From a bacterium (GTDB lineage: Bacteria > Electryoneota > JAOADG01), in NCBI GenBank assembly GCA_963681965.1, contig OY820579.1:1056001-1120000 (forward strand): 64,000 nt of DNA. The letters are read 5' to 3'. Position 1 is the stretch's first letter; each line of letters starts with the position of its first letter. The notes beneath the pieces were generated by a model. It saw only the letters and a list, made by a program, of their open reading frames with translations, had not been told where the DNA came from and ran no database searches. Positions 2,838 through 20,665 of this stretch are shown here, piece after piece. The position numbers and the translations under genes are program-made.

Positions 2838-5800
2838 ATGTCGGACAATTGGCTGTCGTCCATCACTGAAGATATCGAGAAACTGGCACAATTAATTGCG
2901 CCAATCGAAACAAAATCGCTCAATTTCATTGAGGGTGAGCGCCGTGAGGTTGCGATTCTCTTTCTGGATCTTCAGGGTTTTACTACAATGTCCGAATCGA
3001 TGGATCACGAACAACTTCACAAACTGATTTTTGGTGTAATGAGAACACTGGCAACGGTGATCGAACAACATGGAGGATACGTCGATAAATTCGAGGGAGA
3101 CTTGGTGATGGCGCTTTTTGGCGCGCAGCACGCCTCGGAAAACGATAGTATCCGCTGTGTTCAGTGCGGACTCCGGTTGTTTCAAGCACTCGAAGATATC
3201 AATCGACTGTTAAAAGAAAAATTGGGATTTACCCTTGGGGCGCGGATCGGTATCAATTTCGGATGGGTTACGGTAGCTCCCGATCCTTCTGGACATCTGA
3301 CTGCGATCGGCGATGATGTTAATCTCGCTTCCCGGATGGAATCATCAGCGACTGTTAACACCATACAAGTGACGGATTCAGTTGTAAAGCAGTGTGGCGA
3401 GTATTTTGTTTGGCAGGATTTAGGACAAATTTCGGTTCGCGGTAAACATGAACCGATTCATGTTTATCGTCCCATCGGGTTTGGCAAGACTGTGATCGAG
3501 CGCTGGGATCGCTCTAAGCGGGTTCAGCAAGTTCCTTATGTCGGTCGGCAGTTATGGTTGGATCGTCTACTCGAAATTTGGTCTACAAGATCGGTGATCG
3601 AAAATCCACGTAGTTCGCCAAAGCACTACTGGGTTGGTATTCACGGCGAAGCCGGTATCGGAAAATCGCGACTGGCGTTTGAATCCGATCAGTCGATTCG
3701 GAAATCAGATCCCGAGTGTATGATCATCAAAGGGCAAACTACCGCGATTGCGCAACCGCCATTTTGGCTGTGGATTACATTACTGAAAAGTTATTTCAAA
3801 TTCAACGACGCGACTCCCGATTCGGTCCAATTTGCGCAAGGGATTTCCCGTTTAAGATCGATAAATCGTACACTCGAACCGGCAACCTTCGATCGAATGG
3901 TCTTGTTGTTGGATTACATTTTGTCGCTTTCCAGTCCCGATGCAAGCATAAAAGCGATGGATGAAAAATCGCGGCGAACCGAAATTACGCTCGCAATTCG
4001 GGATTTTATCCGGTTGATAGCCCAATCGGTAAACCAGTTAGTTCTGATTTTAGACGACTTGCAATGGCTCGACAGCGGTTCGCGAGAAGTGCTAGAATTC
4101 ATCGTATCAAACTGCGAAACCGAAATGCCGATTTTTTTTGTTGGGTGTTACCGTACCGATCGCGACGACGGTCAACCAGTATCATTTACGATGAACGATC
4201 AGTATCTGATCAGCGAAACGATACGATTGAATTACTTGCCCGAACCGGAAATAAAACAATTAATCAACAACATTCTGACCTGCTCAGATCCGTCAACGAT
4301 TGCAATTCCCGATCAAATTGTCGACCAATTGACCAAGTATTCGCAAGGTAACCCGTTTTATCTGGAAGAACTGCTGCTCGATTGGATTGAAACGGGTAAA
4401 TTAACTGTTAGCGATGGCAAATGGATCGTCGAACAACCCATCTCGGATTTTGGAATTCCTACTAGTATCGCCAGCTTGATTCGTGCTCGCATGGATCGCT
4501 TATCGAAACAAGAGCGCGGTGCTTTGCAGCAGTGTTCGGTACTCGGCTTTGAATTTACACAAACACTCTTTCGTAAAGTTAAAGAAAAAATCGCCGAGAA
4601 GTATGCCGAAGATGTTGTACTGAAAGAGTTGGAGTTTCGAAAATTTTTAAGAAGTCTGGTCAATCTGGAAAATCTATTTTACCGGTTCAGGTTGACGACC
4701 ACCCGCGTTGTCGCGTATGAAACCTTGCTAATGCACAACCGGAAAATCCTTCACCACTTGACTGCAGAGACGATGGAAGAGATGTTCAAGGATGAATTGG
4801 ATATTGTATCCGAGATGCTCTCGATTCATTGGGAATTATCTGAAGAGTGGGATAAATCGATTGAAAGTGGTATTCGTGGATTGACATTTTTGTATCAATC
4901 CTACCAGAACCGGGAAGGATATTTTCTCGCAGAGCGGTTGTTGGAGTTGCTCCACAATAATTCCAACAAAGTCTCCGATTCAAAAGCATCTGAAATTGCG
5001 ATTCTATTTGCGATGGAGCGATTCTGCAATTTTCAGGGAATGCGCGATCGTCAGCAATCGATATTAAATCGCCTATTGGAATTGGTAGATGTTAATTCCG
5101 AACAATTTGTCGACGCGAAGGTCCGAGAAGGCAACCGCTATTTATTGACCGGCGAATATCGCAAAGCTGACGAGATTTATAACGAAGTACTTCCGATCGC
5201 CGATCGGCTCGAGCTAAAACAATTCGTCGCTTCATGCAAAGGGAATATTGGATTACTGCAGATATTCGATAAAAAGTATTCGATAGCCGAAAAATTGCTG
5301 ATTGAAGCAGTTGAAATCTTTCGGTCGATCGGCATGAAAGCTTACGAATCGTCATTTTTAATGAATCTCGGCGGTCTGTTGGCATCGCAACGTCGGATAA
5401 ATGAAGCAATTCCCTGTGTCGAAGCGGCGATTATTAATTTTGAGGCAATGCAAAACCGCCACGCTATCGCAAATGCGATGTCAAATTTATCTTTTCTAAG
5501 AATGCATCAACATCAGATCGATGATGCAATCGATCTGGCAACGAAAGCGCAGACAATTTTTTATGAAGTCGGGGATCGAAAAGCGGAAGGAGTTACGCTA
5601 TCTAACTTAGGTCACTTGAATCTGAGAATTTCGAAATTCAGTGAAAGTGAACACTATTTGAAACAAGCGCTCAAAGTGTTAACCGAGGTAAACGATCTAC
5701 CTACGATTGCCTCTGTGTATATCAATCTGATCGATCTGTTCGAACAACAAGCACGAAAAATCGATGCAATTGCAATCGTTGAATCCGCTATTCCACTTTT

Positions 5801-5867
5801 CGAAAAGTTGGGTCGGGCGGATGATGTTGGCGAACTGAAAAAGAAGCTAGTTTCGCTATCTTCTTAA
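2838..5867 (+). CDS. Class III adenylate/guanylate cyclase fused to STAND-type AAA ATPase and TPR repeats
   Basis: Cyclase motifs AILFLDLQGFT, DKFEGD (adenine-specifying Lys) and IGDDVNLASRME. Walker A GEAGIGKS, Walker B LILDDLQW, GNPFYLEE, then C-terminal TPR-like helices. RBS AAGGA upstream. Confidence 0.92.
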   Translation: MSDNWLSSITEDIEKLAQLIAPIETKSLNFIEGERREVAILFLDLQGFTTMSESMDHEQLHKLIFGVMRTLATVIEQHGGYVDKFEGDLVMALFGAQHASENDSIRCVQCGLRLFQALEDINRLLKEKLGFTLGARIGINFGWVTVAPDPSGHLTAIGDDVNLASRMESSATVNTIQVTDSVVKQCGEYFVWQDLGQISVRGKHEPIHVYRPIGFGKTVIERWDRSKRVQQVPYVGRQLWLDRLLEIWSTRSVIENPRSSPKHYWVGIHGEAGIGKSRLAFESDQSIRKSDPECMIIKGQTTAIAQPPFWLWITLLKSYFKFNDATPDSVQFAQGISRLRSINRTLEPATFDRMVLLLDYILSLSSPDASIKAMDEKSRRTEITLAIRDFIRLIAQSVNQLVLILDDLQWLDSGSREVLEFIVSNCETEMPIFFVGCYRTDRDDGQPVSFTMNDQYLISETIRLNYLPEPEIKQLINNILTCSDPSTIAIPDQIVDQLTKYSQGNPFYLEELLLDWIETGKLTVSDGKWIVEQPISDFGIPTSIASLIRARMDRLSKQERGALQQCSVLGFEFTQTLFRKVKEKIAEKYAEDVVLKELEFRKFLRSLVNLENLFYRFRLTTTRVVAYETLLMHNRKILHHLTAETMEEMFKDELDIVSEMLSIHWELSEEWDKSIESGIRGLTFLYQSYQNREGYFLAERLLELLHNNSNKVSDSKASEIAILFAMERFCNFQGMRDRQQSILNRLLELVDVNSEQFVDAKVREGNRYLLTGEYRKADEIYNEVLPIADRLELKQFVASCKGNIGLLQIFDKKYSIAEKLLIEAVEIFRSIGMKAYESSFLMNLGGLLASQRRINEAIPCVEAAIINFEAMQNRHAIANAMSNLSFLRMHQHQIDDAIDLATKAQTIFYEVGDRKAEGVTLSNLGHLNLRISKFSESEHYLKQALKVLTEVNDLPTIASVYINLIDLFEQQARKIDAIAIVESAIPLFEKLGRADDVGELKKKLVSLSS

Positions 5868-6262: not shown

Positions 6263-9200
6263 TTGAATATGACAAATTCAAACTTAACGTTTCCGGACTA
6301 TTTTGCACATCGATACCGAGTTGAAAGAATATTGGGTAGTGGTGAAAACGGAACCGTATTTCTTGTCCGCGATATTTTGCAGCATGATCGATTACTAGCC
6401 CTCAAACGATTCCATCCCGGATCAATATCCGAAAGCGCTTTTCATTCGACAGCCAAACATCTCCGAGCTATCCAGAAATTGAAATGCGATGGTTTACTCA
6501 CTGCCATCGAGTTCGGCTTCGATCAACATAGTCAATTCTTTTATACTTCGGAGTATTGCGCCCACCCATCGCTGGAAGAAGAGTGGTGGAACCTTACTAA
6601 CCCAGAAAAGATAATTGTGTTATACGATCTTGCTGACATCATGCTTTCTCTTCATGATCATCAGGCACTTCATTATCATTTACACCCACGCAATGTTTTC
6701 ATCAATTTGTCAAACTTACGTAGTGACAATCGTCAGGGAAAAACGGTTCTGATCGGAGATTACTGCTTTCTGCCGGAAGAAAAAATCAGTGGCGGTTGTG
6801 CCGGGTATCGAGCACCGGAATTTGTCAATGATCAAAAATTCGACCACAAATCGGACATCTTCTCGTTCGGCGTGATCGGGTATTCTCTGTTAATGCAGCT
6901 TCCTCCGGACTTATCAACTTTAGCTGATAATATTAACAGTTTTTCGACCTCAGATGCTGAGATGGTTTCGAATAATATGATTGATAATTTATCGAAACTG
7001 CTGGTATCGCAACTTTTCCGCTGTATGAACCCCGTACCTAACTTTCGCCCCTACGATTTTCGCGAAATAATTTCGATTTTTCAGTATTCTCGTCAACGAC
7101 CTGATTGTAACGAAAAGTTGATTGTATCATTTCCATTTACCGGTCGAAGCGGTGAATTAAGGTTTTTAGGATCGATACTACACGATACGAAACAAGGCGA
7201 GCAATGGGCAGTAAATATTTTCGGTAGTAAGGGTGTTGGAAAGAGTCGATTGATTGACGAGTTTGCTTTCAATTATCAATTTAATGGTGGAATCGCTCTG
7301 TTTGTCGGCTCATCACTGATCGATACGCTTAAACGCTTCAATCCCAATCTATCGAGTAGCGAAACGGATCGTCAACTGACTAATCAGGCGATGCATCAGC
7401 ATTTTAGTGACACACTAATTTCTATTACTGACCACAAACCGATCGTAATCTGCTGGAATCAATTCGATCGTGCGGATACCGCATCCATAACTCTATTCAA
7501 AGAATTGCTGCTGCTTTATCCATCGCTACCAATTTTCTGGTTGTTGGAGAGTGAGTTGCCGGCACTGAGTCTCGATGGATTAGGTTTTACCGATCGGGTT
7601 ATTCGTCGCGAATTATTGCCGTTTTCTATGGAAGAAGTTGAAAAACTACTTCAGAACGTATTTCCTCGAACCGAGCATACTGGTAATTTAGCAAAATTAT
7701 TGAGTACACATTTCGGGACTCGACCGGGTTGGTTTGAATATGCAATAAATCGATTGATATCAAACCGCGCGATCAGTAACAACTTTGGTCGATGGGAAAT
7801 CGATATCGGATTAACCCAAAAGCTACTGCACGAAGATGGGGAATTAGTTCGAGTCGACCTTAGCAAGCTTTCGCAAGACGCTCAAACATTACTGGAGTGG
7901 ATGGCAGGACGGTCGAAACCGTGTCGAAAAGAAGAACTGCAATCGGCTATTAGCTTGACGGAGAGTGGATACTTTTCGGCAACGAATCAGTTGTTAAAGA
8001 TCGGGTTAATTGAGATTCATGGACCCGTGTTGAATATCCGATATTCGGCAGTGCGCGATGAAATCATCCGCTGCCTTTCGGAAAATAAGCGCAAAGTACT
8101 ACACAGTTGGATCGGTCGCTGGTTGGAAGAAAATATTTCGAATACTCCGAAACAATCCGAACTGTGGGAGATCGTTAAACATTATTATGAAGGCAGCGAC
8201 CGGTCATCATTCTTGAGAGTAATCGAAGAGTTGATTGCGAGATTTTATCGAAAACCGTCTTTGATCATTGACACGGAAATAATTCTGAAAGCGCTGTTAG
8301 AGCAGGATAGTCCGCTTCAGATGGAAAACCAATATCGCGGGTATTATCTGCTAGGTTTGTTGTATATCTTTACCGAAAAATTTGAGAAAGCGGTATGGGT
8401 ATATCGAACGGTATTAAGTACGAAAGCCTTCAAACCATACTACACTCTCTACTGGGCGCACAATATGTTGGGGCAGGCACTTTATGCCATGCAGGATTTT
8501 GCGAGTGCCGATCGAAATTTCCGACTTGCCATACGGTTGAATAAATCGCAATCGATCGATGAATTACCGCAATCGTTGCGAGCGCTGGCAACAATTTGTC
8601 ACAACCGAGCCAAGTACGACGCTGGGATCGAGTACATCGAAAAATACTATCAATCGATTCAACAAATTGAAGATTTAAATCGGAAGTACGACGAATTGTT
8701 CCGGTGTGGGCGCCTCTACTACATGTACAATATTCGCGAAAAAGCGGTCGAGCTTCTTCAGGAAGTTTACAATTGTACTCAATATACATCCAGTTTCATG
8801 AGACACATATCGTATGACACTATTATCAAAATTACGATGATGAAAGGTGAATTTCGTCTTGCCCTGCAAATGCTACAAAAGTATTTAATGCAACATAACG
8901 ATCCGCTACCTAGTAATCTGCAGTATAAGTTCGACTACACGAGAATTTTGTGTTATATCTCAACTGGGAAAGCCGACCAATGTTGGTTGCTGGTAGATAC
9001 TTATCAAGTACAAATTAAAATCTATCTCAATGTTTCAAGTCGCTTGCTCATTTCCATCGATTTAGTGCAACTTTTTTATTATTTCGGAAAGTTTCAATCG
9101 GGTTTGAAAGTTTTGCGGGAAGTCTTCTTATTATTCCGGGTGAGCAAACATCATTCGAATCTGCCGATATATTTAGCTTGGGTAGCGCAGTATTTCTATT

Positions 9201-11278
9201 TGATCAAACCGTCGAAACCGAAATTCTACGAACTCATCGATCGATACTTGATCAAAAATAAATCCCAAACCACGGCTACTTTCGGAAATCAGATCATGTA
9301 CGATCTTTATTGCGATCTGAATCAACCGATCCGGGCAAAAGCCGCACTAGAGCGAATCCCTAGAAAAGTCGGAATGAAGGATGTCGATATTCCCGATGAA
9401 TTGATAGTTGCGATGCAGTTCCGGATGGAAATCGAGTTGACTAAACCGCAATCGATCGACGAACCGAAATATAGTGAAATAGAAAAAAGTGTTCGAAACT
9501 TAGCTGATGTTTTCAATCAAGTACAGCTCTATCGCGAATTGATGAATGCCGCAATTGTGCAAACCGCGATTTCGTTGGCTGATCGATATTTCCATCGAGC
9601 ACTTGAATTGTTATTGTATGTTAAAGCTGACCTGTTAATTGCTCAATTGTATGAGAAATATGGATCGGCATTATATCGCTGGAATCGATCGCCAGTTGGA
9701 GCCGATTATCTGTCCAAGGCAAAGCGAATACTGATCGGATTGGGAATGCCCTATCGCGGAATCGACCCACAAAATATCGAAAATATCTCAGTGAATGGAG
9801 ATGACGAAATGAGTCGAATGATCGAACCATTGCGAATGATAACCAGATTAGTCGAGCGATTCAATGAGTTGGACGACCCAAGAACAATTATGCGACAACT
9901 GCTGGAAACGACTGTTACCGGTTTGAATGCAAAAATTGGGTGGGTTATTCAACTGAACAAAAATAATCAATTGTCGAAAAACGGAATGATTGCTACCGAC
10001 TCGGGGGCTTTACACGACGACTTATTGGAGTTGGGATCGAAAACTCTAAATCTTAATGAAGCAAAATACATCGAGCAGTTTACCAGAATTAATGATCGTA
10101 GCGATTCGACGTCAAATTACGGTATCTGTTTACTACCGATTTCGACTCGGGGAATTCGATCGGGAGTACTCTTGGTCGAATTCGCACAGATTCATGAATT
10201 CAATTCTGAGGAAAAGTGCGTTCTGGAACTCGTAGCTCAGATTTTCGGATCGATGTTCACTTTTGAAAACCAACTCGAGATGACTAGAAAAGATACTTCG
10301 CTAACACAAAGCGTGTTACTGAACGATGGGTACAGCGAATTAAAAGGGAATTCCCCGGCAATGCAAGAGGTTTACCGAATTCTGGCATTGCTTCGTAAAC
10401 AGGATTTACCGGTACTAATTCTTGGTGAAAGTGGAACTGGAAAGGAGTTGGTCGCGAATATTATGTATCGGCAGAGCAATCGGTCCGATAAACCGTTCTA
10501 TGCATTGAATTGTGCTGCTTTCCCCGATACACTGATCGAGAGTCAGTTGTTTGGTCACGTCAAAGGCGCTTTCAGTGGCGCAATGTCGAATCACGATGGG
10601 TTTTTCAAAACAGCCGAAGTAGGAACAATCTTTCTGGATGAAGTAAACCACATGAGTCCGATGATGCAAGGGAAGTTGCTTCGTGTGTTGCAGGAAGGCG
10701 AGTATTTTCCCGTCGGTTCGACGAAAGTTCAAAAGACCAATGCACGAATCATTTGTGCAGCCAAAAACACATTACCCGAGATGTTGCGAAGCGGGCAATT
10801 TCGCGAAGATTTATTTTACCGCATCAATGTGATCGAGGTTAAAATCCCGCCGTTACGCGATCGAAAAGAGGATATTAAAATCCTCGCCGAATATTTTATC
10901 CAAAAATTCAATAAACAATTTTCGGCATCGGTAAAAGGGATTCGGAACACAGCCATGCAGTCATTACAGAGTTATTCTTGGCCGGGAAACGTTCGGCAGT
11001 TGGAGAACGCAATTCGACACTCATTTTTATTTGTTAAGAAAAACACTTGGATCGACGCATCGCACCTTCCTCAAGAAGTCGTACAAAACACACTTCCACT
11101 AATTGATCAATCGATCTCGCTGACCAAAAAGATTGAAGACCTTGAACGGCAATATCTTTTACAGGCACTTGAACTGTCTCATTGGAATAATTCCGAAGCC
11201 GCGAGAATCCTGGGAGTCAGCCGACAAACGGTGATTCAAAAAATCAAACGGTACGGATTGTCCCAATCGAACACATAG
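6263..11278 (+). CDS. Multidomain sigma54-dependent enhancer-binding protein: degenerate Ser/Thr kinase + STAND ATPase + TPR + GAF-like + AAA+ sigma54 activator + Fis-type HTH
   Basis: Kinase GSGENG, ALK, RAPE and SDIFSFG. Second P-loop GSKGVGKS. bEBP motifs GESGTGKE, ESQLFGH..GAFSGA, IFLDEV, FREDLFYR and WPGNVRQLEN. C-terminal SEAARILGVSRQT HTH. True start may be the ATG at 6269. Confidence 0.9.
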   Translation: MNMTNSNLTFPDYFAHRYRVERILGSGENGTVFLVRDILQHDRLLALKRFHPGSISESAFHSTAKHLRAIQKLKCDGLLTAIEFGFDQHSQFFYTSEYCAHPSLEEEWWNLTNPEKIIVLYDLADIMLSLHDHQALHYHLHPRNVFINLSNLRSDNRQGKTVLIGDYCFLPEEKISGGCAGYRAPEFVNDQKFDHKSDIFSFGVIGYSLLMQLPPDLSTLADNINSFSTSDAEMVSNNMIDNLSKLLVSQLFRCMNPVPNFRPYDFREIISIFQYSRQRPDCNEKLIVSFPFTGRSGELRFLGSILHDTKQGEQWAVNIFGSKGVGKSRLIDEFAFNYQFNGGIALFVGSSLIDTLKRFNPNLSSSETDRQLTNQAMHQHFSDTLISITDHKPIVICWNQFDRADTASITLFKELLLLYPSLPIFWLLESELPALSLDGLGFTDRVIRRELLPFSMEEVEKLLQNVFPRTEHTGNLAKLLSTHFGTRPGWFEYAINRLISNRAISNNFGRWEIDIGLTQKLLHEDGELVRVDLSKLSQDAQTLLEWMAGRSKPCRKEELQSAISLTESGYFSATNQLLKIGLIEIHGPVLNIRYSAVRDEIIRCLSENKRKVLHSWIGRWLEENISNTPKQSELWEIVKHYYEGSDRSSFLRVIEELIARFYRKPSLIIDTEIILKALLEQDSPLQMENQYRGYYLLGLLYIFTEKFEKAVWVYRTVLSTKAFKPYYTLYWAHNMLGQALYAMQDFASADRNFRLAIRLNKSQSIDELPQSLRALATICHNRAKYDAGIEYIEKYYQSIQQIEDLNRKYDELFRCGRLYYMYNIREKAVELLQEVYNCTQYTSSFMRHISYDTIIKITMMKGEFRLALQMLQKYLMQHNDPLPSNLQYKFDYTRILCYISTGKADQCWLLVDTYQVQIKIYLNVSSRLLISIDLVQLFYYFGKFQSGLKVLREVFLLFRVSKHHSNLPIYLAWVAQYFYLIKPSKPKFYELIDRYLIKNKSQTTATFGNQIMYDLYCDLNQPIRAKAALERIPRKVGMKDVDIPDELIVAMQFRMEIELTKPQSIDEPKYSEIEKSVRNLADVFNQVQLYRELMNAAIVQTAISLADRYFHRALELLLYVKADLLIAQLYEKYGSALYRWNRSPVGADYLSKAKRILIGLGMPYRGIDPQNIENISVNGDDEMSRMIEPLRMITRLVERFNELDDPRTIMRQLLETTVTGLNAKIGWVIQLNKNNQLSKNGMIATDSGALHDDLLELGSKTLNLNEAKYIEQFTRINDRSDSTSNYGICLLPISTRGIRSGVLLVEFAQIHEFNSEEKCVLELVAQIFGSMFTFENQLEMTRKDTSLTQSVLLNDGYSELKGNSPAMQEVYRILALLRKQDLPVLILGESGTGKELVANIMYRQSNRSDKPFYALNCAAFPDTLIESQLFGHVKGAFSGAMSNHDGFFKTAEVGTIFLDEVNHMSPMMQGKLLRVLQEGEYFPVGSTKVQKTNARIICAAKNTLPEMLRSGQFREDLFYRINVIEVKIPPLRDRKEDIKILAEYFIQKFNKQFSASVKGIRNTAMQSLQSYSWPGNVRQLENAIRHSFLFVKKNTWIDASHLPQEVVQNTLPLIDQSISLTKKIEDLERQYLLQALELSHWNNSEAARILGVSRQTVIQKIKRYGLSQSNT

Positions 11279-11453
11279 TTTTTCGATCTCCAACACGATC
11301 CTGCATACAACTTAACTTATTAATAATCAATAAGCGTTTGAGATCTGTATAGATATCGATCAAAACGTTGATGCTGGATTCCGTCTAATAATATAGTTGT
11401 TGCCGAAAAGATTATATAAGCATTATTTATATATAATTACGGTATGTATTTTC

Positions 11454-11470
11454 TTGGCACATATAATGCT
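11454..11470 (+). promoter_or_regulatory. Sigma54 (-24/-12) promoter
   Basis: TTGGCAC-ATATA-ATGCT: GG at 11456-57 and GC at 11468-69 with exact 10-nt spacing. Intergenic, about 60 bp before the ATG at 11530, and adjacent to a bEBP gene. Confidence 0.8.
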
Positions 11471-11529
11471 TCTCTACATGTGAAAGTAGGATCCAAAATT
11501 TCTAACGTTCACAATCGGGAGAATCCATT

Positions 11530-11820
11530 ATGAAATCGCAGTTTAAAGCTTTGATTTGTATCGCCGTAATTCTCTGCCTTTCAATACTACCGAAAATAGG
11601 TTTTTGTGCTTGGGAATTTCAAGATGAGACTGGTGATGCGATTGTTCTCACTCGTACCGATCAAGTGAAGCATGAGATCAATAAAGGGATTTATTGCTTT
11701 TATGATGCCGGTGTAAACAAATGGATTACCATTTTGGATTTTTCACAATCACCCTACCCACTAGTGTCGATTCCGGGTTACACCCTGGTTTGGAAACCAG
11801 ATTCAAATTACGATTTCTAA
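11530..11820 (+). CDS. Small hypothetical secreted protein (96 aa)
   Basis: RBS GGGAGA. N-terminal signal peptide MKSQFKALICIAVILCLSILPKIGFCA. Short beta-rich mature part. Confidence 0.7.
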   Translation: MKSQFKALICIAVILCLSILPKIGFCAWEFQDETGDAIVLTRTDQVKHEINKGIYCFYDAGVNKWITILDFSQSPYPLVSIPGYTLVWKPDSNYDF

Positions 11821-11888
11821 CATTCGGTGACGTTCATTTTATGCTTTCATTTTGTGTCGTCGAGTCAATATGTCAGTGAGAAACGAAT

Positions 11889-12200
11889 ATGATCAATACT
11901 CGTCAAGCCGTACCTGATCAAGTCCAAGCGATTTGGGATCGTCTCTTGAATGAAGAAAATGTTATGGGAATGCGCAACCGAAGACCGGCAAATGCACGTT
12001 ATGCGATCTTTCGTGCAAAAGAGTTGCTCCCGATCGAATTCAATAATTTAAGATCGGCATTTGATCGATCACCAATCAATTTTGAGGAAAACGAAGAAGA
12101 TCAGTATCAACACCTGTCGTATTTGGCAAATATATCCTATTATGTCGTATTTCGCATTATTGAACATTCGGAATATAGTGCAGATGCCGTATTGAATTAA
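11889..12200 (+). CDS. Hypothetical protein (103 aa)
   Basis: Co-oriented ORF between neighbours with a GAGA RBS-like motif and a 13-bp gap to the next gene. No recognisable motif. Confidence 0.55.
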   Translation: MINTRQAVPDQVQAIWDRLLNEENVMGMRNRRPANARYAIFRAKELLPIEFNNLRSAFDRSPINFEENEEDQYQHLSYLANISYYVVFRIIEHSEYSADAVLN

Positions 12201-12213
12201 TTCTGGGACAAAT

Positions 12214-13104
12214 ATGGAAACCCAATTGTTGGAATTAACCAAGAAAATAAAAAAAATGCCGGATGGTGATTTTCGCTCTCAATTGCATCTTACGATACCG
12301 AAAGAGAACAAGCGAAATCAGTCATCGCAAAAGCGAATTCTTTACAGTTTTCCGGAAGAACCTCGGCTGCAGGTTCAACAATTGGGATATCTCATTAATA
12401 TTCTTCACCAGCATCTTCTGGGGAGTACTATTGAAAGTCACCGCGATTCAATCATTTCGATTCGATCTTATGGTGTTTATTATCTGATCAGTGAACTGTT
12501 GGAAAAAGTCGCAGCGGATGTAATCTCGGATCAAGAGCTTAATGTGAATTCGATTGCCTGGTGGGTGGGTGCGCTGCTTGACGACCAAATTGACTGGAAT
12601 ACTTCCTTTGATCGGATGTTGCAGCTCATTTATTATCCAGTTGATAATGGGTTAAATGACGTTGAATATTTGAAACAGAACTCCCCAATCTCGATTTTTC
12701 TTTCAGATGTTTTTAATAACAACATTTTAGGATCGACTTCCGTTGCATACTCTACTACTCCAATCCAATTTATTACCTCTGGAATATTGTGTGACAATGA
12801 ATTAATGTATTTTTACCGAAAATTGTCGAGCTGGCACAAAAATGGTATTCATCCGTGGATTAACTTATTGGATTACCGCTCTTTGGTGAAATGTGCAATT
12901 AGCTGCTATCAAATTCAACGATATCTTGAAATCCATTCGGGTTGGAAATGGCAGAAGATCGCGGAGGTGTTGAATGATATCCGAGCGATAAGGATCAGTT
13001 TAACAACGGAAGCCGTCACGTTAATTACTCGCCCGAATGTTGAACAAATGGAATTGTTCTACCGGCTAGATATACCCCCGCCAAAATCTGTGATAACCGA
13101 TTAA
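12214..13104 (+). CDS. IS1634-family transposase-derived protein, internally shortened and apparently lacking the DDE catalytic core
   Basis: The N-terminus KKMPDG..RILYSF..LGYLINILHQHL..SIRSYGVYYLISELLEK and the C-terminus RYLEIHSGWKWQKIAEVLNDI..ITRPNVEQMELFYRLDIPPP resemble IS1634 Tnp termini (recalled family pattern). Only 296 aa long. Confidence 0.55.
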   Translation: METQLLELTKKIKKMPDGDFRSQLHLTIPKENKRNQSSQKRILYSFPEEPRLQVQQLGYLINILHQHLLGSTIESHRDSIISIRSYGVYYLISELLEKVAADVISDQELNVNSIAWWVGALLDDQIDWNTSFDRMLQLIYYPVDNGLNDVEYLKQNSPISIFLSDVFNNNILGSTSVAYSTTPIQFITSGILCDNELMYFYRKLSSWHKNGIHPWINLLDYRSLVKCAISCYQIQRYLEIHSGWKWQKIAEVLNDIRAIRISLTTEAVTLITRPNVEQMELFYRLDIPPPKSVITD

Positions 13105-13489
13105 CACTTTTTACTCGCTTTAAATCACATCAAATTTCTTAATGCTTGAATTTGTTAGCATTAATCTCCCCTTAGCGAACTTGTCGTCTGTCAGTTGTAT
13201 CGAAATTCGAGATAAATTTTTAAATAAGTGACTGTTGCGTGGTGCTTTCAGATGTAAGCTGAATTGTTTTTCGTGTGAAAATATAACGACATAATGCAAT
13301 ATATTTGTAAATCTAAATAATTTACTCCAACAACTTCGATGAAAGAGATGGTTGGACGATTGGCGTTGAGAATACAAAAAAAATAATTTTTTCCCCCGCG
13401 AACTGTAGAAGCTCCTGTTTTCTTCCTATATTGGTTAAGTTCTTGAGTGCAACGATTCAACAACATCATTTAATGAGAATCATCGATAT

Positions 13490-13864
13490 ATGCATACTTC
13501 CAAAAGCGTCATTCCGGTGCTGAAACTATTCGATTATTTGATCGTTACGATCCAAATCGATATGGACGATCTAACCGCCAATCTCTTTCGAAACGACATT
13601 CTTAAGCAAATCGAAAAAACCAATGCAAAAGGTGTATTGATCGATATTTCGGTGATCGATTTAGTAGACAGTTATCTCGGTCGGGTTTTAGGCGACACGG
13701 CACGAATGGCAAAATTAATGGATTGCGAAGTCGTTCTGGTCGGTATGCAACCTGCAGTAGCATTGACTTTGGTCGAATTAGGCTTAAGTCTTGAATCGGT
13801 TCACACTTGTTTAAATCTGGAAGCCGGTCTAAAACTGTTGAACCGGTTAACCAAGGATCGATAA
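13490..13864 (+). CDS. rsbS: Stressosome STAS protein RsbS
   Basis: Single STAS domain with DISVIDLVDSYLGR (conserved phospho-Ser) and GMQPAVALTLVELG. Confidence 0.92.
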   Translation: MHTSKSVIPVLKLFDYLIVTIQIDMDDLTANLFRNDILKQIEKTNAKGVLIDISVIDLVDSYLGRVLGDTARMAKLMDCEVVLVGMQPAVALTLVELGLSLESVHTCLNLEAGLKLLNRLTKDR

Positions 13865-14274
13865 TGGATCCCACTATTATCGAAATCATAGAAGAAAAAG
13901 ACATTGTAGTCTGTCGTCAGGAATGCCGCAATCAAGCGCGGTTGCTGGGCTTTTCCTTAGTCGATCAGACGCGAATTACCACTGCCGCCAGTGAACTCGC
14001 CCGAAATATTTACGAATACGCCAAGAAGGGCGAAGTGCGGATTGAAAAGATTCAATCGTCGAACGGTATCGGATTGAAAATGTCGTTTATCGATCACGGT
14101 AAGGGTATCGAGAATGTCGACCTAGTGATGAAAGACGGGTGGAGTTCCCATCAAGGTATGGGAATGGGATTACCCGGATCGAAACGATTGATGGATGAAT
14201 TCTCGATTCAGTCTGAAATCGGAAAAGGAACGACTGTAGTAGCTGTGAAGTGGTTGCACAAGGTTTTGATTTAG
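13864..14274 (+). CDS. rsbT: Stressosome Ser/Thr kinase RsbT
   Basis: The start overlaps the rsbS stop (TAATG). Motifs QTRITTAASELARNIYEYA, DHGKGI, GMGMGLPGSKRLMDEF and GKGTTV. Confidence 0.93.
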   Translation: MDPTIIEIIEEKDIVVCRQECRNQARLLGFSLVDQTRITTAASELARNIYEYAKKGEVRIEKIQSSNGIGLKMSFIDHGKGIENVDLVMKDGWSSHQGMGMGLPGSKRLMDEFSIQSEIGKGTTVVAVKWLHKVLI

Positions 14275-14287
14275 AGAAAGGACAACG

Positions 14288-15280
14288 ATGGAAGCGAAAT
14301 TGGGATCACTAGAAAATCTAAAAGGGTTAATGGATGCAACAACCGGATTTTTGCGTGTAACCGATATCAATCAATTGTGTCAATTGACGGCGGATTCAAT
14401 TATCAAGTTTTCACCATTTCAGCGGTGCGTTGTTTCTGTATCTGAAACCGATGGAACATTCCGTCGAGTAGGCTTCAGTGGAATCAACAAAGCGCAAATC
14501 GATGAACTACTCAATATGCCCCGCCGCAAATTGTCCGAAACACAATCGCAACTGCAGGAACGCTTTCTAATCAGTCGATCCTATTATATTCCTCACGATG
14601 TTTCGAATTTGGTTGGTTTGAAAAGTACGATTACTTACGATACCAAAGCCGAATGGCATCCGGACGACTTCCTGTTCATTCCGTTGTACAATCCCGATAA
14701 TTCGATCGTCGGTTTAATCAACGTTGACGATCCATCGGACGGTCTCCGACCCACGGTTGCCAAATTATTGCCGTTGGAGATTTTTGCCAACCAAACGGCT
14801 GCAGCGTTGGAAAATATTCGCGGGATCCAGAAACAGCAGGAATTAATTCAACGGTTGCGCGATCAACAAAATGTCGTGCTGGAATTATCAACTCCGGTAA
14901 TTCAAATCACCGATCAAATATTGGCGCTACCGTTAATCGGAGCTGTGGACAGTGCCCGTGCGCAACAAATAATGGAAAATATTCTGATCCGGATTACCGA
15001 AACGGAAAGTGCTGTCATCATTATCGATATTACCGGAGTACCGATTATCGATACTTTAGTCGCTTCGCACTTGATCAAGACGGTCGCTGCGGCGAAACTG
15101 CTTGGTACGGAAGCGATTATCTCGGGAATTAATCCGGAAATAGCTCAAACGTTGATTCATCTTGGAGTTGATTTGACGAAGATTACAACGAAATCCAAAT
15201 TGTCCCGGGCATTGGATACGGCGTTGAAAATGACAAATCGAAAAATCGCTCCACTATTTGTTGAAAAAGAGAATGATTAA
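14288..15280 (+). CDS. rsbR: RsbR-family stressosome sensor with N-terminal GAF domain and C-terminal STAS
   Basis: GAF-like WHPDDFLFIPL..GLINVDDP. STAS motifs ELSTPVIQI, PLIGAVDSARA and DITGVPIIDTLVA. Confidence 0.88.
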   Translation: MEAKLGSLENLKGLMDATTGFLRVTDINQLCQLTADSIIKFSPFQRCVVSVSETDGTFRRVGFSGINKAQIDELLNMPRRKLSETQSQLQERFLISRSYYIPHDVSNLVGLKSTITYDTKAEWHPDDFLFIPLYNPDNSIVGLINVDDPSDGLRPTVAKLLPLEIFANQTAAALENIRGIQKQQELIQRLRDQQNVVLELSTPVIQITDQILALPLIGAVDSARAQQIMENILIRITETESAVIIIDITGVPIIDTLVASHLIKTVAAAKLLGTEAIISGINPEIAQTLIHLGVDLTKITTKSKLSRALDTALKMTNRKIAPLFVEKEND

Positions 15281-16347
15281 TGGCACTTGAAGGTTTGTCG
15301 CCCGATATCTTTTCAGTATCGGTGGCGCCGGGCGAGAAACTGAGGGTGATATCGTATCAATCGTCGTACGATTCATCATCGATTATCGCTGTAGCTTGTG
15401 GATTTGGGATTCAATTCGGATTTGTCGAACGCGACATTCAGGAACTTGAGATCGTAGTTCGCGAGTTGCTTGCAAATATTTCACGTCATGGAGGTGGAGA
15501 AGGCACGATCGTTTTTTATTCACGGGAATTGGCGGATCGTCTACCGACGTTGATTATTGATTTTATGGATAATGGTCCCGGTTTTCCCGATTACGATCTT
15601 TCGCTTCACGATAATACAATCAGTGGATTTACACCGGGAGGCGGATTACCATCGGCTCGACGGTTTTGTGATCGTGTCGAACTAATGCCGAATTCACCGA
15701 AAGGCGCAATTGTTCGAATCACGAAATCCAGCAGTCGGTCGAATCCACACCGTATCGGTTCGTTTGTTGTTTTGTCGAAACCGCATCTGGGTGAAACGCA
15801 CAATGGCGATCAGGCGACAGTAATTCACACCAATAATTTTACATTGGTCGCACTGGTTGATGGATTGGGTCACGGTTTAGTTGCTTTTCAAGCGGCAAAA
15901 TCCGCGATCACGATCATCGAACAAAATTATCAAGTACCACTTGATCAATTGATCAAAATTATGCATATCGAATTGATGAAAACGCGGGGTGCAGCGGTTT
16001 CGCTGGCAAAGATCAATTACGATCCACAGACGATCGATTATCTGGGTATTGGAAATGTAAATACGGCACTGATTTCCAATACAGCGAATCACTTAGTGAA
16101 TTACAACGGTACTGTCGGGCTTGATATTTCCCGGTCGCATGTTGTAACATACAAATATGAATTGGGCATGCGATTGATTATGTATACTGACGGTTTGGCG
16201 AGTAATTGGATGAAAAATCAAGATTTGAACATTGAGTGCGATGCCTTGCAACAGGCACACACCATTTTGTCCAGTCATGCCCGACCAACCGATGACGCAA
16301 CGCTGGTATTGGGTAAATTGATGCTTTGGACTCCGGAAAATGGATGA
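15280..16347 (+). CDS. HATPase_c (RsbT/RsbW-like) fused to SpoIIE/RsbX-type PP2C phosphatase
   Basis: HATPase motifs ELLANISRHGGG, DNGPG and GGGLPSARRFCD. PP2C motifs NGD, VDGLGHG, YTDG and TDDAT. Coupled to rsbR by TAATG. Confidence 0.85.
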   Translation: MALEGLSPDIFSVSVAPGEKLRVISYQSSYDSSSIIAVACGFGIQFGFVERDIQELEIVVRELLANISRHGGGEGTIVFYSRELADRLPTLIIDFMDNGPGFPDYDLSLHDNTISGFTPGGGLPSARRFCDRVELMPNSPKGAIVRITKSSSRSNPHRIGSFVVLSKPHLGETHNGDQATVIHTNNFTLVALVDGLGHGLVAFQAAKSAITIIEQNYQVPLDQLIKIMHIELMKTRGAAVSLAKINYDPQTIDYLGIGNVNTALISNTANHLVNYNGTVGLDISRSHVVTYKYELGMRLIMYTDGLASNWMKNQDLNIECDALQQAHTILSSHARPTDDATLVLGKLMLWTPENG

Positions 16348-16834
16348 GAACGATCAAATCATTGCCGGTCTGAAAAACGATATTCAATCGCTCCGCGACG
16401 AATTGGCTGAAACCAATCGAGGAGTAATTGCACTATACTCCGAAATTGAAGACGCCAATCTTCAATTACAACAACAGCGAAACGAATTGAAAGCTAAAAA
16501 CGATCTCCTTGAAGCAACGATGGTGCAGTTGGAAGAGGCGAATCGCGAAATCTCCAAACGTGAACGTAATGCCGCCATCGGACAAATGGTCATTACCTAC
16601 AATCACGAAATCAACAACCCGCTCTTTGTCATCCAAGGGACACTAAGTTTGATGCAAAAATTCCCGCCCAAGGATGAGGAAAAGTTGAAAGAAAAAATTC
16701 GTATTATCCTTGATAATTGCGATCGAATCAGTCGCGTCCTACTTCGGATCAGAGAATTTGACAATCTCTTGCCGAAGAAGTATTTGAATAGCGAGTTGCT
16801 TGATCTCAAATTAACTAAAGATTTAACAACCTGA
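16340..16834 (+). CDS. Coiled-coil + HisKA/DHp phosphoacceptor protein without ATP-binding domain
   Basis: ELAETNRGVIALYSEI coil and H-box TYNHEINNPL. The protein ends about 70 aa later with no N/G1/F/G2 boxes. Confidence 0.75.
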   Translation: MDENDQIIAGLKNDIQSLRDELAETNRGVIALYSEIEDANLQLQQQRNELKAKNDLLEATMVQLEEANREISKRERNAAIGQMVITYNHEINNPLFVIQGTLSLMQKFPPKDEEKLKEKIRIILDNCDRISRVLLRIREFDNLLPKKYLNSELLDLKLTKDLTT

Positions 16835-16893: not shown

Positions 16894-19800
16894 TTACGGT
16901 CGCAACCAGTAATCGCTGGGGTATACCGTGTATACCGGTAAATTGGGTTCGAATTTTGCGATTTCGGTAGCAAGCGATTCGAATTGTGTTTTTGGTCCAA
17001 TCACAAAGAAATTGGGATCCACTGCATTGACCTTCGAATTCCCCATCCCGACGATCACCGAGCCATATACTCGATCGATTCGCTTATACAATTCAGGGAT
17101 TAAATTAGGTGTTTTACTCACTGTCAAAATTTGTTTCCGGAAAGAGGCAACTCGTTCCGGTGTGATACCATCCGCTAAATTTGCGGCAATCTTATAACCA
17201 CGCGATTCGTAACGGTCGGCAGCTTGACTGTCGACAAAATACTGTGCGACGATATAATCGGAAAGTGATGAGTCAACCGCGGTTTTACTTGCCTTTAAGT
17301 AATCTGCTACAAATCGAATCGTCGCAGCGATATCCGGACATCGTTCGGCATAATAACTAGCTCGCCCCTTCGATTCGCCGATGCGAAAACCGTTACTGTA
17401 GGCTAATCCGGAGCCCCATGTCTTCATGAATAGACCGTGAGCGCCACTACCGCCGAATAGACCACCAGTGAGGTAATCCATTGCGGCTTCGCGGCTGCTG
17501 TCCCATGGTGCAGTTAATTTGCATGTGAGCATCAGAACGCCGTTCCGCGAATTTTCATTCAACAACCCCACATACACCGGTTTCTTCAGACCGGGATTGC
17601 GGTCGCAAATCCGTTGTTCGATTCTTCGAATGTTGGAGTAATGCTGTTCGATCGGTTGTTTGTTCTCCAAGCATGAAACTAAATGTTCAATTTTTGGAAG
17701 CATTGCTTCACGATCGATGCGACTGGAAACTAGATACATTCGTGCATTACCGGAATTCCGCAGCGAGGCGAGAATCTGACGGAAATCGGCGAGTGTGCGA
17801 TCGGGACCATAAGCTAGATCGGATTTTACTAGCTGGCACAGAGCGATAAAATCGGAAGCGGCGGTTTCCGTAGGTAAATCGCCGATCATCGAACCAAGTT
17901 CTTTCGACAGAATCTTGATAATATCGGATGCTGAAGAAGTCAATTGCTTCGGTTCTGAGCGATCAAGTAATGTCGTTAAGTTTTCACGACTCATACCTGC
18001 AGAATGCGAAATTAGATCGTCAAGATACTGATAAACTTCCGATCGTGCCTGACTCTTTTCGATTTCTGTGAAACGGCACTTCAAGCGAAACATACACGCT
18101 TTTTGCGTTAAAAATGAGTTGCAGACCAGAAACAATGGTTTGTTTTGGAGATAGTAAGAGATCGAGGGATTGCGTACCCAATTCTCTTCCTTTCCAGTCA
18201 TCGAATTTCGTAAACCGTCTAATTCTTCATCGATGACATCGCGAATTCGAGGAAGATTCTCGTGTGCGAGATAGGGTGAAGTTAATCCCAGTTCCATCCA
18301 CTTTGCCGAATTTTCGAATTCGGTGCGATTACCGCCCATTCCTGTCAACAGTAATTCAAACCGATCCGCGACTTCGCTGACATCTAGCGAAGCACCGAAA
18401 TGTAATACTTCTTCGTGGAGACGCTTCTCCATCTCTTCGTAACTGACCGGTTTACCATTATCGACGACTCCGATCTGATTGATTATCGATGGGAGCAAAG
18501 GAACGTAAAACAGCAGCGACTCGGGTATGACCGAAAGCCGTAACGACAGACCGGTTGTGATTGACGTGATATTATCGAATGTAGACGCAACCACCGGTAC
18601 ACCATTCGATAACTTGATTGTTTCATAATTCAGCAGAGGATCGGGTGTCAGTGGCGGATTTTCGACAAATTTCGGAAGCTTCAATCCAACATATTGCTGA
18701 TCGATTTGTTTGGTTGTTTCGTTGTAATCGCGTTCGAACAACACTAACGCTGAATCGGTAGAAGAAGCGTGGTATTTGGACTTCAGCTTATTCAATGCTT
18801 TTGCCAAACGCGCCTCTTTTTCGGCAACTGCCGTCTTAGCCAATGTCGTATTCGGAACCGAAGCAAAGGCAAATGGTGGTCGCTTAAGTAGTTTGCTACG
18901 ATCGATCAACGACCTCCAGATATTCTTCCCGCTCTTTACTTTGGCTTCAAGTGCATCGATATCCGATTTCATTGCGAGCGATTTACTGAATGAATTGCTG
19001 GATTTTTCAAGTTGCGATAGATAATAGTACCAATTGGAAGCACCGCCACCACCGCGTTCACCGAATCCGGGAGGTGAATTGAGATAATACCGGATACCTT
19101 TCCGGAATTGCTGAATTCGTGACAAAACATCTTTATTGAATTCGATCAACTCAGGCGAACCGTCCGGATAAGAAGACAGCCGTTGCAATTCGGTCGAAAC
19201 AATTAACCGGAGCGAATCTATCATCGTTTGATTGATTTTATTACGGGCAATTCCCGTAAAGATAAAGCCGAGCGAATTTCCCGGATCGGAGTTGATGTAA
19301 CCTGATACGCTTGCAGCGCCAGTTTCGATAACACGAGTTTTCGATCCGATAATTTTTTGGTGTAAAGGGGATGATTGTGAATTGACGAATGAATTGATAA
19401 AATATTGCATTAATAGATACGTGTCGAATGAAAACTCATTATCCGCTGGATACAAAAAGTAAACTTCGCAGCGATCGTTTGGGTTATCGCTCGGATACTC
19501 GACAGGTATCAATTTACCTGAAGGAGATGCCGGATGAATTGTCGGCAAATTGGGTTTTGTCATTCCGTTGACAATGCCGGTATGTCCATTTGGTTCGATT
19601 CGATCCAATATCTCGGATAAACGAGATAGACTTGCTTCGATTGGAACATCGGCAGGTAATGCTACGATCGCGCCCATCTTGTCCAGTCGGTAATTGTCGG
19701 AATGGAATCGTCGAATATCGTCGGTTGTCATCGTACGATTGGCAGGAGGATAACCGCCTGTCTCACTCGATAGCGGGTGATCTTTACCATAGATGTGGTA

Positions 19801-20430
19801 ATTCGCCATTTGAAACAATAGCGAATTGGGTTTTTCAAAAGCACTGAGCATTTCGGTATAGATCGTGCCCTTTTCTTCCAAAACTCGCTTCCCGGTTTTC
19901 GAGTCGATACTTACACCTAAATGATAATCTTCTCTGACTTGTTCTGCATCGGAAAAGTCGGGGTGAAGCAGAGCATCCAATTTCAAATCGAAGAGACGGT
20001 AAAAGGATCCCGTGTCGGCATTCGTGTTGAAATGATAAGCAGTATAAAGTTGCGAAGTATAGGCGGTACTCGTGGCAAGCGTCATATCTTCGAAAACGGA
20101 GATAATCTTTCCCTTCTTGCCTTTACCGAGAACTAGATGCTCGATCGAATGCGGTTCGCCTTTTTCACTGCTTGTTCGCGTGTTTACCCAGATAAAAGCT
20201 TGAGGTACCGATTGAATTGGCAGTAAGTCGAGAATGAAACTATGCTTGATGCTTTGAAATCGTGCACCGATACGCACATCGGCATCGTTCGTATATACAT
20301 TCTCAACTTTAAATCCAGCGATGATATCGCCTTCACGAAATTGATCGAGCCGATTAGTAGATTCGGCGATGGATATTGTACAGAAGATTGCCAAGAGGAG
20401 CAGGATGGAAATTCTTTGATAAATGCGCAT
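16894..20430 (-). CDS. Secreted M16 (M16C/presequence-protease-like) zinc metallopeptidase
   Basis: Inverted zinc motif HSIEH, EKGTIYTEM and GLAYS. Signal peptide from MRIYQRISILLLLAIFCTISIA, with an AAGGA RBS before the ATG at 20430. Confidence 0.8.
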   Translation of the reverse strand: MRIYQRISILLLLAIFCTISIAESTNRLDQFREGDIIAGFKVENVYTNDADVRIGARFQSIKHSFILDLLPIQSVPQAFIWVNTRTSSEKGEPHSIEHLVLGKGKKGKIISVFEDMTLATSTAYTSQLYTAYHFNTNADTGSFYRLFDLKLDALLHPDFSDAEQVREDYHLGVSIDSKTGKRVLEEKGTIYTEMLSAFEKPNSLLFQMANYHIYGKDHPLSSETGGYPPANRTMTTDDIRRFHSDNYRLDKMGAIVALPADVPIEASLSRLSEILDRIEPNGHTGIVNGMTKPNLPTIHPASPSGKLIPVEYPSDNPNDRCEVYFLYPADNEFSFDTYLLMQYFINSFVNSQSSPLHQKIIGSKTRVIETGAASVSGYINSDPGNSLGFIFTGIARNKINQTMIDSLRLIVSTELQRLSSYPDGSPELIEFNKDVLSRIQQFRKGIRYYLNSPPGFGERGGGGASNWYYYLSQLEKSSNSFSKSLAMKSDIDALEAKVKSGKNIWRSLIDRSKLLKRPPFAFASVPNTTLAKTAVAEKEARLAKALNKLKSKYHASSTDSALVLFERDYNETTKQIDQQYVGLKLPKFVENPPLTPDPLLNYETIKLSNGVPVVASTFDNITSITTGLSLRLSVIPESLLFYVPLLPSIINQIGVVDNGKPVSYEEMEKRLHEEVLHFGASLDVSEVADRFELLLTGMGGNRTEFENSAKWMELGLTSPYLAHENLPRIRDVIDEELDGLRNSMTGKEENWVRNPSISYYLQNKPLFLVCNSFLTQKACMFRLKCRFTEIEKSQARSEVYQYLDDLISHSAGMSRENLTTLLDRSEPKQLTSSASDIIKILSKELGSMIGDLPTETAASDFIALCQLVKSDLAYGPDRTLADFRQILASLRNSGNARMYLVSSRIDREAMLPKIEHLVSCLENKQPIEQHYSNIRRIEQRICDRNPGLKKPVYVGLLNENSRNGVLMLTCKLTAPWDSSREAAMDYLTGGLFGGSGAHGLFMKTWGSGLAYSNGFRIGESKGRASYYAERCPDIAATIRFVADYLKASKTAVDSSLSDYIVAQYFVDSQAADRYESRGYKIAANLADGITPERVASFRKQILTVSKTPNLIPELYKRIDRVYGSVIVGMGNSKVNAVDPNFFVIGPKTQFESLATEIAKFEPNLPVYTVYPSDYWLRP

Positions 20431-20665
20431 AGGAATCCTTTCAGTCAAGAAATTCATCGATGAATGTCGCTTACAAGAGACAATTTAACCAAAATCAACG
20501 TAGTTTCAACCAATCGTACAGTTTGTGATTGACGCAATCGAAAGGGTTGCAGTCGCATCATTCGGTGTGTGTTTCGATACAAAACAGTCACAAAATGAAG
20601 TGATGAATTACGCAACACTTCATTCGATTGTGTTTAACAATTGTGCAGATGGAAGGGATGTTCTG

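Follow-up and report, generated by a model that had tools for sequence, protein, structure and literature searches.

A giant STAND-type sigma-54 activator, its candidate promoter, a secreted mini-protein and a DDE-less IS1634-transposase derivative appear to form a conserved cassette in Calditrichota

The window analyzed here is a 64-kb stretch (contig OY820579.1) of a complete, single-contig genome of 4.24 Mb, and it carries a cassette in which the gene of a giant sigma-54 activator is followed by a −24/−12 promoter motif, the gene of a small secreted protein and the gene of a transposase derivative without the catalytic Asp-Asp-Glu (DDE) core. Comparison between loci supports the view that these four elements are a conserved unit. 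On balance it is probable that the unit works as a ligand-gated sigma-54 switch that drives the secreted protein together with a relic of an IS1634 insertion sequence transposase, exapted as a DNA-binding protein. The activator, the motif and three co-oriented open reading frames (ORFs) reported in a preliminary description of the window were all found again where that description had placed them, and a pair of inverted repeat arms can be added. The elements are as follows, with lengths in amino acids (aa) or nucleotides (nt).

6263..11278, + strand: gene of a bacterial enhancer-binding protein, 1671 aa from TTG
11455..11470, + strand: −24/−12 sigma-54 promoter motif TGGCACATATAATGCT, from a consensus scan and conservation between loci
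11530..11820, + strand: gene of the small secreted protein, 96 aa
11889..12200, + strand: orphan ORF, 103 aa
12127..12148, + strand: left arm of an inverted repeat with 22-nt arms, complementary at 19 positions
12214..13104, + strand: gene of the DDE-less IS1634-transposase derivative, 296 aa
13286..13307, + strand: right arm of the inverted repeat, 182 nt past the stop of the transposase-derived gene

One argument for a functional link between the activator and the genes behind it is the promoter motif. TGGCACATATAATGCT begins 177 nt past the activator stop codon, in agreement with the sigma-54 promoter previously proposed about 180 bp behind the activator, and 60 nt before the ATG of the 96-aa ORF, with GG at 11456–11457 and GC at 11468–11469. 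It is the only match to TGGCAC-N5-TTGCW within the window that has a single mismatch and keeps both the GG and the GC, and the whole genome of 4.24 Mb has 22 TGGCAC-N5-WTGC sites, this one included. By itself it would not convince, because the 25 matches with at most two mismatches to TGGCAC-N5-TTGCW in the window are not above shuffled sequence (mean 21.9). The motif is more than chance because it is conserved in the equivalent spacers. In seven of eight loci the spacer between the activator and the small gene holds exactly one TGGYAY-N7-GC motif, positioned 45–75 nt ahead of the small gene. When six spacers (1.95 kb) were scanned for GG-N10-GC, each gave exactly one site and all were of the TGGYAY type; TGGYAY-N7-GC has a frequency of 0.061 per kb per strand in the genome, and about 0.12 motifs are expected over the 1.95 kb. 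The spacer motifs of the window, of a metagenome locus and of the other genomes (denoted by G and a number) are:

window: TGGCACATATAATGCT
G039: TGGTATGGAATTTGCC
G027: TGGCATGATTAATGCG
G002: TGGCACGAAAGTTGCT
G047: TGGCATAAAATTAGCT
G045: TGGCATGAAATCTGCA
metagenome locus: TGGCACCATTTGTGCT
G001 (the eighth locus, on a 2.6-kb contig): TGGCACGGAAATTGTC, a GT variant with T for C at −12 that misses the strict pattern

The position of the motif also indicates that the listed ORF start of the small gene in G045 is too far upstream, and that the true start follows a GGAGG 50 nt downstream. From the motif in the window, transcription is predicted to start at about 11480. A scan of 11200–13600 for sigma-70 promoters and terminators gave eight promoter-like sites (8.2 in shuffled sequence) and no terminator. 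Sigma-54 itself is encoded in the genome (rpoN; Sigma54_DBD, 162.7 bits at G000:C1:3768983-3769453). Two inverted repeats account for the longer spacer of G039 (520 nt): one with 58-nt arms, 84% complementary, lies between activator and promoter (L009 9024-9156), and a perfect one with 26-nt arms lies at L009 8887-8972. Both look like small inserted repeat elements.

The order of activator, sigma-54 promoter, small secreted gene or genes and transposase-like gene or genes was found in seven of the eight loci. Conserved synteny, a check named beforehand, is thus borne out in every locus where the contig is long enough; the G001 contig ends before the activator, pieces of which sit on other G001 contigs. 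The 79 Calditrichota species genomes were searched in three ways, with a profile of the transposase-like protein, with a profile of the small protein and with the central STAND-TPR part of the activator, and all three families were found in exactly the same seven genomes. These are the window's own genome, two of the three others in its family and, in a second family, four of 16. Restricted to genomes that are at least 90% complete, the count is five carriers in 51. In the 79 genomes every copy of the small secreted family lies in the cassette, and the transposase-like family occurs at the cassette only, as one gene or a tandem pair. Scans with single proteins added one locus from the second metagenome scan and nothing from genome contigs or the first metagenome scan. 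The genes that flank the cassette vary by locus: a cyclase-STAND gene in the window, a restriction enzyme in G039 and a protein sorted by the type IX secretion system in G045. The two host families separate in the tree of the transposase-like protein (support 99/97), and the split recurs in the activator tree (86/90 and 94/97); both trees have long branches and few rows. As far as these trees and searches reach, the cassette is vertically inherited and restricted to Calditrichota.

The activator, whose database form has 1669 aa from an ATG at 6269, combines a sigma-54 output with a large regulatory part. In Pfam it matches Pkinase at aa 18–262 (E 1.6e-16), the STAND-type P-loop NTPase AAA_16 at aa 291–425 (E 7.1e-13), Sigma54_activat (PF00158) at aa 1361–1526 (E 5.3e-63), AAA_lid_14, with the lid at aa 1532–1610, and the Fis-type helix-turn-helix domain HTH_8 at aa 1624–1664 (E 5.7e-13). 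A TPR/helical sensor region extends over aa ~690–1180; its matches to TPR_8, TPR_14 and TPR_2 are weak and under the Pfam cut-offs, and TPRs are clearer in the orthologues, which match TPR_12 and TPR_MalT. The region of aa ~1190–1340 is GAF-like in that it aligns with the Pfam GAF domains of orthologues; in the window protein it no longer scores against Pfam GAF. NCBIfam gave only partial matches to NtrC, NifA, PrdR and NorR, limited to aa ~1350–1666 and far under their cut-offs. The protein is collinear over its full length with orthologues from five other sources, at 27–32% identity.

The sigma-54 module is intact. Walker A (GESGTGKE), Walker B (IFLDEV) and REDLFYR are conserved, the first two in all eight activator orthologues, and the sigma-54 contact loop reads GAFSGA in the window and G[AS]FTGA, GGFTGA or GAFTDA in the orthologues. 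Seven of eight activators retain the Walker A motif of the STAND domain, GxxxxGKS. The kinase domain is more variable. In the window protein the catalytic loop reads HYHLHPRN, so that the HRD Asp and the loop Lys are both replaced by His, and the DFG position reads DYC (in GDYC), while the VAIK Lys and the APE motif are retained; the protein thus lacks the loop Asp and Lys and the DFG of an active Hanks-type Ser/Thr kinase, and its Pkinase score is 60.9 bits compared with 116–132 bits in the orthologues. Six of eight activator orthologues carry H-[YLF]-D-L-K-P-x-N with the catalytic Asp and Lys, and five of these six have DFG, the sixth (G045) having NFG; the database orthologue P0057 has HRRIHSNN and DTG. 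The designation as a pseudokinase therefore fits the window protein and does not fit the family, and since six of the eight keep the catalytic Asp and Lys the predicted pseudokinase state is derived and lineage-specific. A second paralogue of the STAND-TPR part is present in G027, in a 1351-aa ORF on another contig (G027:C7:80538-83627).

The first gene behind the promoter encodes a protein with a signal-type hydrophobic N-terminal helix and a mature part of about 70 aa. A hydrophobic signal-type N-terminus is present in all eight homologues (alignment A7), which agrees with the earlier view that the 96-aa protein is secreted. Conserved in the mature part are a W, R-x-D, H-E, G-x-Y-G-[YF] and W-[VI]-P-G-P. 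The AlphaFold2 model consists of the signal helix and a five-strand beta domain, with a predicted local distance difference test (pLDDT) score of 82.8. It has no convincing structural relative by Foldseek (best E 0.25) or VIA-align (best Z 2.8), Pfam, NCBIfam, PADLOC and the ESM Atlas gave no lead, and the sequence profiles of the PDB gave chance-level matches only. The gene is present in two tandem copies in G039, and the protein of G027 has an extra C-terminal extension that is acidic and Trp-rich.

The 103-aa ORF is a different matter. Its codon usage resembles that of a coding sequence (codon-frame score 0.23, compared with 0.19 +/- 0.07 for real genes), but none of the other loci has a counterpart, a search of the 78 other Calditrichota genomes gave no homologue, and the ESM Atlas returned nothing usable for it. 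In G039 and G001 its place is taken by paralogues of the secreted protein and not by homologues of the 103-aa ORF. The distance between the small gene and the transposase-like gene is 393 nt in the window and 59–192 nt in the other loci, and the 103-aa ORF is best described as a lineage-specific orphan, apparently added in this enlarged spacer outside the conserved cassette. Where three outputs had been claimed, there are therefore two conserved ones.

The origin of the 296-aa protein could not be read from library models. Pfam gave no match, DDE domains included, and the NCBIfam model NF033559 (cut-off 100 bits) matched the C-terminal 58 aa only, with 11.6 bits and E 0.1; four of six family members give a similarly weak C-terminal match, the best with E 0.0052. 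A word-index homologue search returned only the protein itself. A profile of six family members searched against 1.84 billion representatives gave 50 proteins at E ≤ 0.001, among them about 28 full-length relatives of 285–343 aa (P0005–P0031), several fragments and, below the relatives, four full-length IS1634 transposases of 530–555 aa (E 3.9e-11 to 3.1e-5). These four score 380–412 bits on NF033559, and the family match falls after their DDE_Tnp_1 domain. When 30 family members were compared with the four transposases by hhalign, the probability was 99.1 (E 1.9e-18), and without realignment family positions 6–283 correspond to transposase positions 1–538 with one gap over transposase ~171–427. 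The family has thus retained transposase residues 1–170 and 428–538, joined by a short variable linker where the transposase has its catalytic core. The deleted ~257 aa hold both catalytic Asp motifs of the IS1634 transposase; the alignment of 30 sequences has no invariant acidic residue, and none at the aligned Glu position. The four-sequence transposase profile was required before the homology showed, as a single-sequence hhalign comparison with the resident IS1634 transposase of G039 gave E 0.01 over the C-terminal tail only. Taken together these profile comparisons bear out the earlier suggestion of a domesticated IS1634 transposase, for which the library models alone were insufficient: the 296-aa protein is, by this homology, a descendant of an IS1634 transposase and, because the DDE core is deleted, predicted to be incapable of catalyzing transposition. 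Nine intact genomic copies of the family are known at 20–27% identity, and this argues for selection on the gene; the G027 cassette carries two in tandem. In structural terms VIA-align gave a best Z of 5.1, confined to the N-terminal 78 aa of the model, and the PDB sequence profiles gave no match to the family.

The elements probably act together as follows. The STAND, TPR and GAF-like part of the cytoplasmic activator would keep the AAA+ module switched off as long as no cytoplasmic signal is present. Signal-dependent oligomerization would then enable the activator to remodel the sigma-54 RNA polymerase at 11455–11470, a promoter that we infer to be served by the activator encoded just upstream. 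The first and probably the main product would be the secreted beta-sheet protein of about 70 aa. The transposase derivative would be made by read-through or from a separate start and would be catalytically dead; its retained non-catalytic ends presumably serve in DNA recognition and multimerization, so that it may act as an exapted DNA-binding protein and a second-tier regulator. In most relatives it would in turn be coupled to the PAS/histidine kinase encoded directly behind it.

Several observations weigh against this scheme. First, the DNA-binding role of the N-terminal region of IS1634 transposases is assumed. In addition AlphaFold2 models the 296-aa protein with only moderate confidence (pLDDT 68), and the model has no clear structural relative (Foldseek best E 0.21). 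Second, the transposase-like gene may lie outside the sigma-54 transcript, because the small gene is followed by stable hairpins with 12–14-bp stems in G027, G047 and G045 and by a shorter one with a 6-bp G+C-rich stem in G039; behind the small gene of the window there is only a weak hairpin. Third, a gene for a PAS and/or HisKA-HATPase(-receiver) protein is found behind the transposase-like gene in G002, G027, G039, G045 and G047, with a gap of 7, 17 and 61 nt in three loci and 146–164 nt in two, and the window is without this histidine kinase: a 385-nt gap is followed by a STAS/RsbW/PP2C partner-switching cluster. The proposal of a self-contained circuit needs correction in that the unit does not close at the transposase-like gene in the five relatives in which a PAS/histidine kinase gene follows directly. 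Fourth, no shared upstream inverted repeat that could serve as the binding site of the activator was found across the six spacers compared.

A more specific form of the scheme would make the derivative a sequence-specific DNA-binding regulator with a retained recognition of end-like inverted repeats, for example the 22-nt pair around its gene in the window, operating with the secreted mini-protein and the histidine kinase in an intercellular signaling or developmental circuit that is gated by the STAND sigma-54 activator. We consider this form rather unlikely.

It is also unlikely that the adjacency of activator and promoter is incidental, with another enhancer-binding protein serving the promoter and the giant activator acting elsewhere. 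The genome encodes nine clear Sigma54_activat proteins, of which the window activator is the only giant, so that other candidates are at hand, and the lack of a common upstream binding repeat in the spacers would fit such an arrangement. Against it, the central, family-specific STAND-TPR part of the activator is present in exactly the seven of 79 genomes that have both downstream families, and the activator lies directly upstream in seven of eight loci, while the outer flanks differ.

An anti-phage or conflict system, in which the triggered STAND sensor induces effectors, is about equally doubtful. STAND NTPases with TPR sensors are frequent in immunity, the distribution over seven of 79 genomes is patchy, and in G039 a type III restriction gene adjoins the cassette. 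Against this, PADLOC 2.0 gave no match to a whole system; it hits the activator at the level of the generic AAA+ and kinase domains only and has no family for the 96-, 103- and 296-aa proteins, so that the possible defense role mentioned in the preliminary description finds no support. The outputs have no recognizable nuclease, toxin, pore or NADase domain, the flanks are not defense genes in loci other than G039, and inheritance looks vertical within two families.

That the 296-aa ORF is merely a decaying IS1634 remnant, a pseudogene without host function, appears very improbable. The catalytic core is gone, protein evolution is fast (end branches of the tree have two to three changes per site), and in the window alone the gene is flanked by the 22-nt inverted repeat, and these points speak for a remnant. 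In the window the pair exceeds what shuffled sequence gives: 19 of 22 was reached by none of 200 shuffles of the flanks and by one of 60 shuffles of the whole region. Direct copies of TGTCGTATTT, which occurs 12 times genome-wide, lie beside the left arm at 12115 and 12143, 28 nt apart. In G045 and at L023 the best flanking pair has 17 of 22 (reached by 3 of 200 and 9 of 200 shuffles, respectively), flanking repeats are at chance level in six of the eight other copies of the transposase-like gene, and the arms of one locus do not resemble those of another; the repeat in the window could possibly represent relic element ends or binding sites. Against a decaying remnant, the same deletion architecture is found in uninterrupted ORFs of 285–343 aa, at 20–27% identity, both in nine copies from genomes and in about 28 clusters of the database. 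The gene is in the same position in all eight loci, is single copy in the genome, has a phylogeny that tracks the host families and has coding-like codon usage. Finally, the derivative retains the transposase parts that are likely to function in end recognition and multimerization and could in principle inhibit or regulate resident IS1634 elements in trans, as truncated inhibitor proteins do for some insertion sequences. Against this, the complete genome of the window has no IS1634 transposase (the only match, with 11.7 bits, is the 296-aa gene itself) and only one of five cassette-bearing relatives searched has one; this explanation too is most improbable.

An activator encoded beside its own target promoter is textbook logic. 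The enhancer-binding proteins of the PspF/pspA, NorR/norVW and RtcR/rtcBA type have an adjacent sigma-54 target promoter, and the cassette resembles them in having a Sigma54_activat domain with a GAFTGA-type loop, a C-terminal Fis-type helix-turn-helix and a neighboring −24/−12 promoter. It differs in that a kinase-like/STAND/TPR/GAF-like regulatory part of about 1350 aa takes the place of a receiver, GAF, V4R or CARF domain, and in its presumed targets, a secreted mini-protein and a transposase relic. From the STAND transcription regulators, such as MalT and the SARP/AfsR-type proteins, the activator shares the AAA_16-type P-loop NTPase followed by a TPR sensor and the presumed ligand-driven oligomerization, whereas its output is a sigma-54 AAA+ motor and not a LuxR or SARP DNA-binding domain, and a kinase or pseudokinase head is added. 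The order kinase, AAA_16, TPR, GAF, Sigma54_activat is also shared with proteins of 1400–2020 aa that are annotated as "sigma 54-interacting transcriptional regulator" in metagenome genomes of other lineages (P0058, P0060, P0067, P0070, and P0094), so that the architecture as such is already present in databases. Within the N-terminal 700 aa these proteins align with the window activator over a part only, at no more than 20–26% identity. Orthologues with about 30% identity are few: three in the database, plus the loci found here. An abstract-level search of the literature found no description of the activator architecture.

The derivative is homologous to the IS1634-family (IS4-related) DDE transposases over its N-terminal ~165 aa and its C-terminal ~110 aa, and differs from them in lacking the core of about 257 aa, in being single copy at a fixed position and in being inherited with the host families. 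Truncated transposase-derived regulators of insertion sequences are known, such as the Tn5 inhibitor, InsA of IS1 and OrfA of IS911, which are products of active elements whose own transposition they control. Like these, the derivative is a non-catalytic protein made of transposase parts; unlike them it has no parent element in the genome, and its gene lies in a host sigma-54 cassette. At the level of abstracts, the literature gave no description of the conserved output pair with a core-deleted IS1634 transposase in a host sigma-54 cassette and no bacterial parallel for the core-deleted derivative; the passages of PMC7159879 that were examined do not describe the cassette.

An unstudied giant kinase-STAND sigma-54 activator can now be paired with a precisely located, phylogenetically footprinted candidate promoter and a two-gene output, which turns an anonymous "sigma 54-interacting regulator" into a putative circuit that is open to testing with reporter fusions. 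The second gene of the output encodes a derivative of a bacterial DDE transposase that is fixed in the host, lacks the catalytic core and is, judged by the trees, vertically inherited across two Calditrichota families. Should the more specific and rather unlikely form of the scheme hold, the derivative would be an example from bacteria of the exaptation of a DDE transposase into a transcription factor of its host. The impact is limited in that Calditrichota are little studied and hard to manipulate.

The surroundings of the cassette in the window contain further signaling genes. The partner-switching cluster behind the derivative has the following position and content.

13490-16834, + strand: STAS, RsbW-like HATPase, GAF-STAS, HATPase-PP2C (SpoIIE) and a 164-aa HisKA-only ORF

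On the opposite strand it is followed by the gene of a 1187-aa protein (16894-20457, − strand) whose only domain is an inactive M16 peptidase. Directly upstream of the activator lies the gene of a second STAND protein (2838-5867, + strand; 1009 aa) with adenylate/guanylate cyclase, AAA_16 and TPR domains. It matches PycC of PADLOC at the level of the cyclase domain only, and it does not adjoin the cassette in other loci. It is preceded by a 927-aa ORF (21-2804, + strand) that has no Pfam family at E ≤ 0.001.

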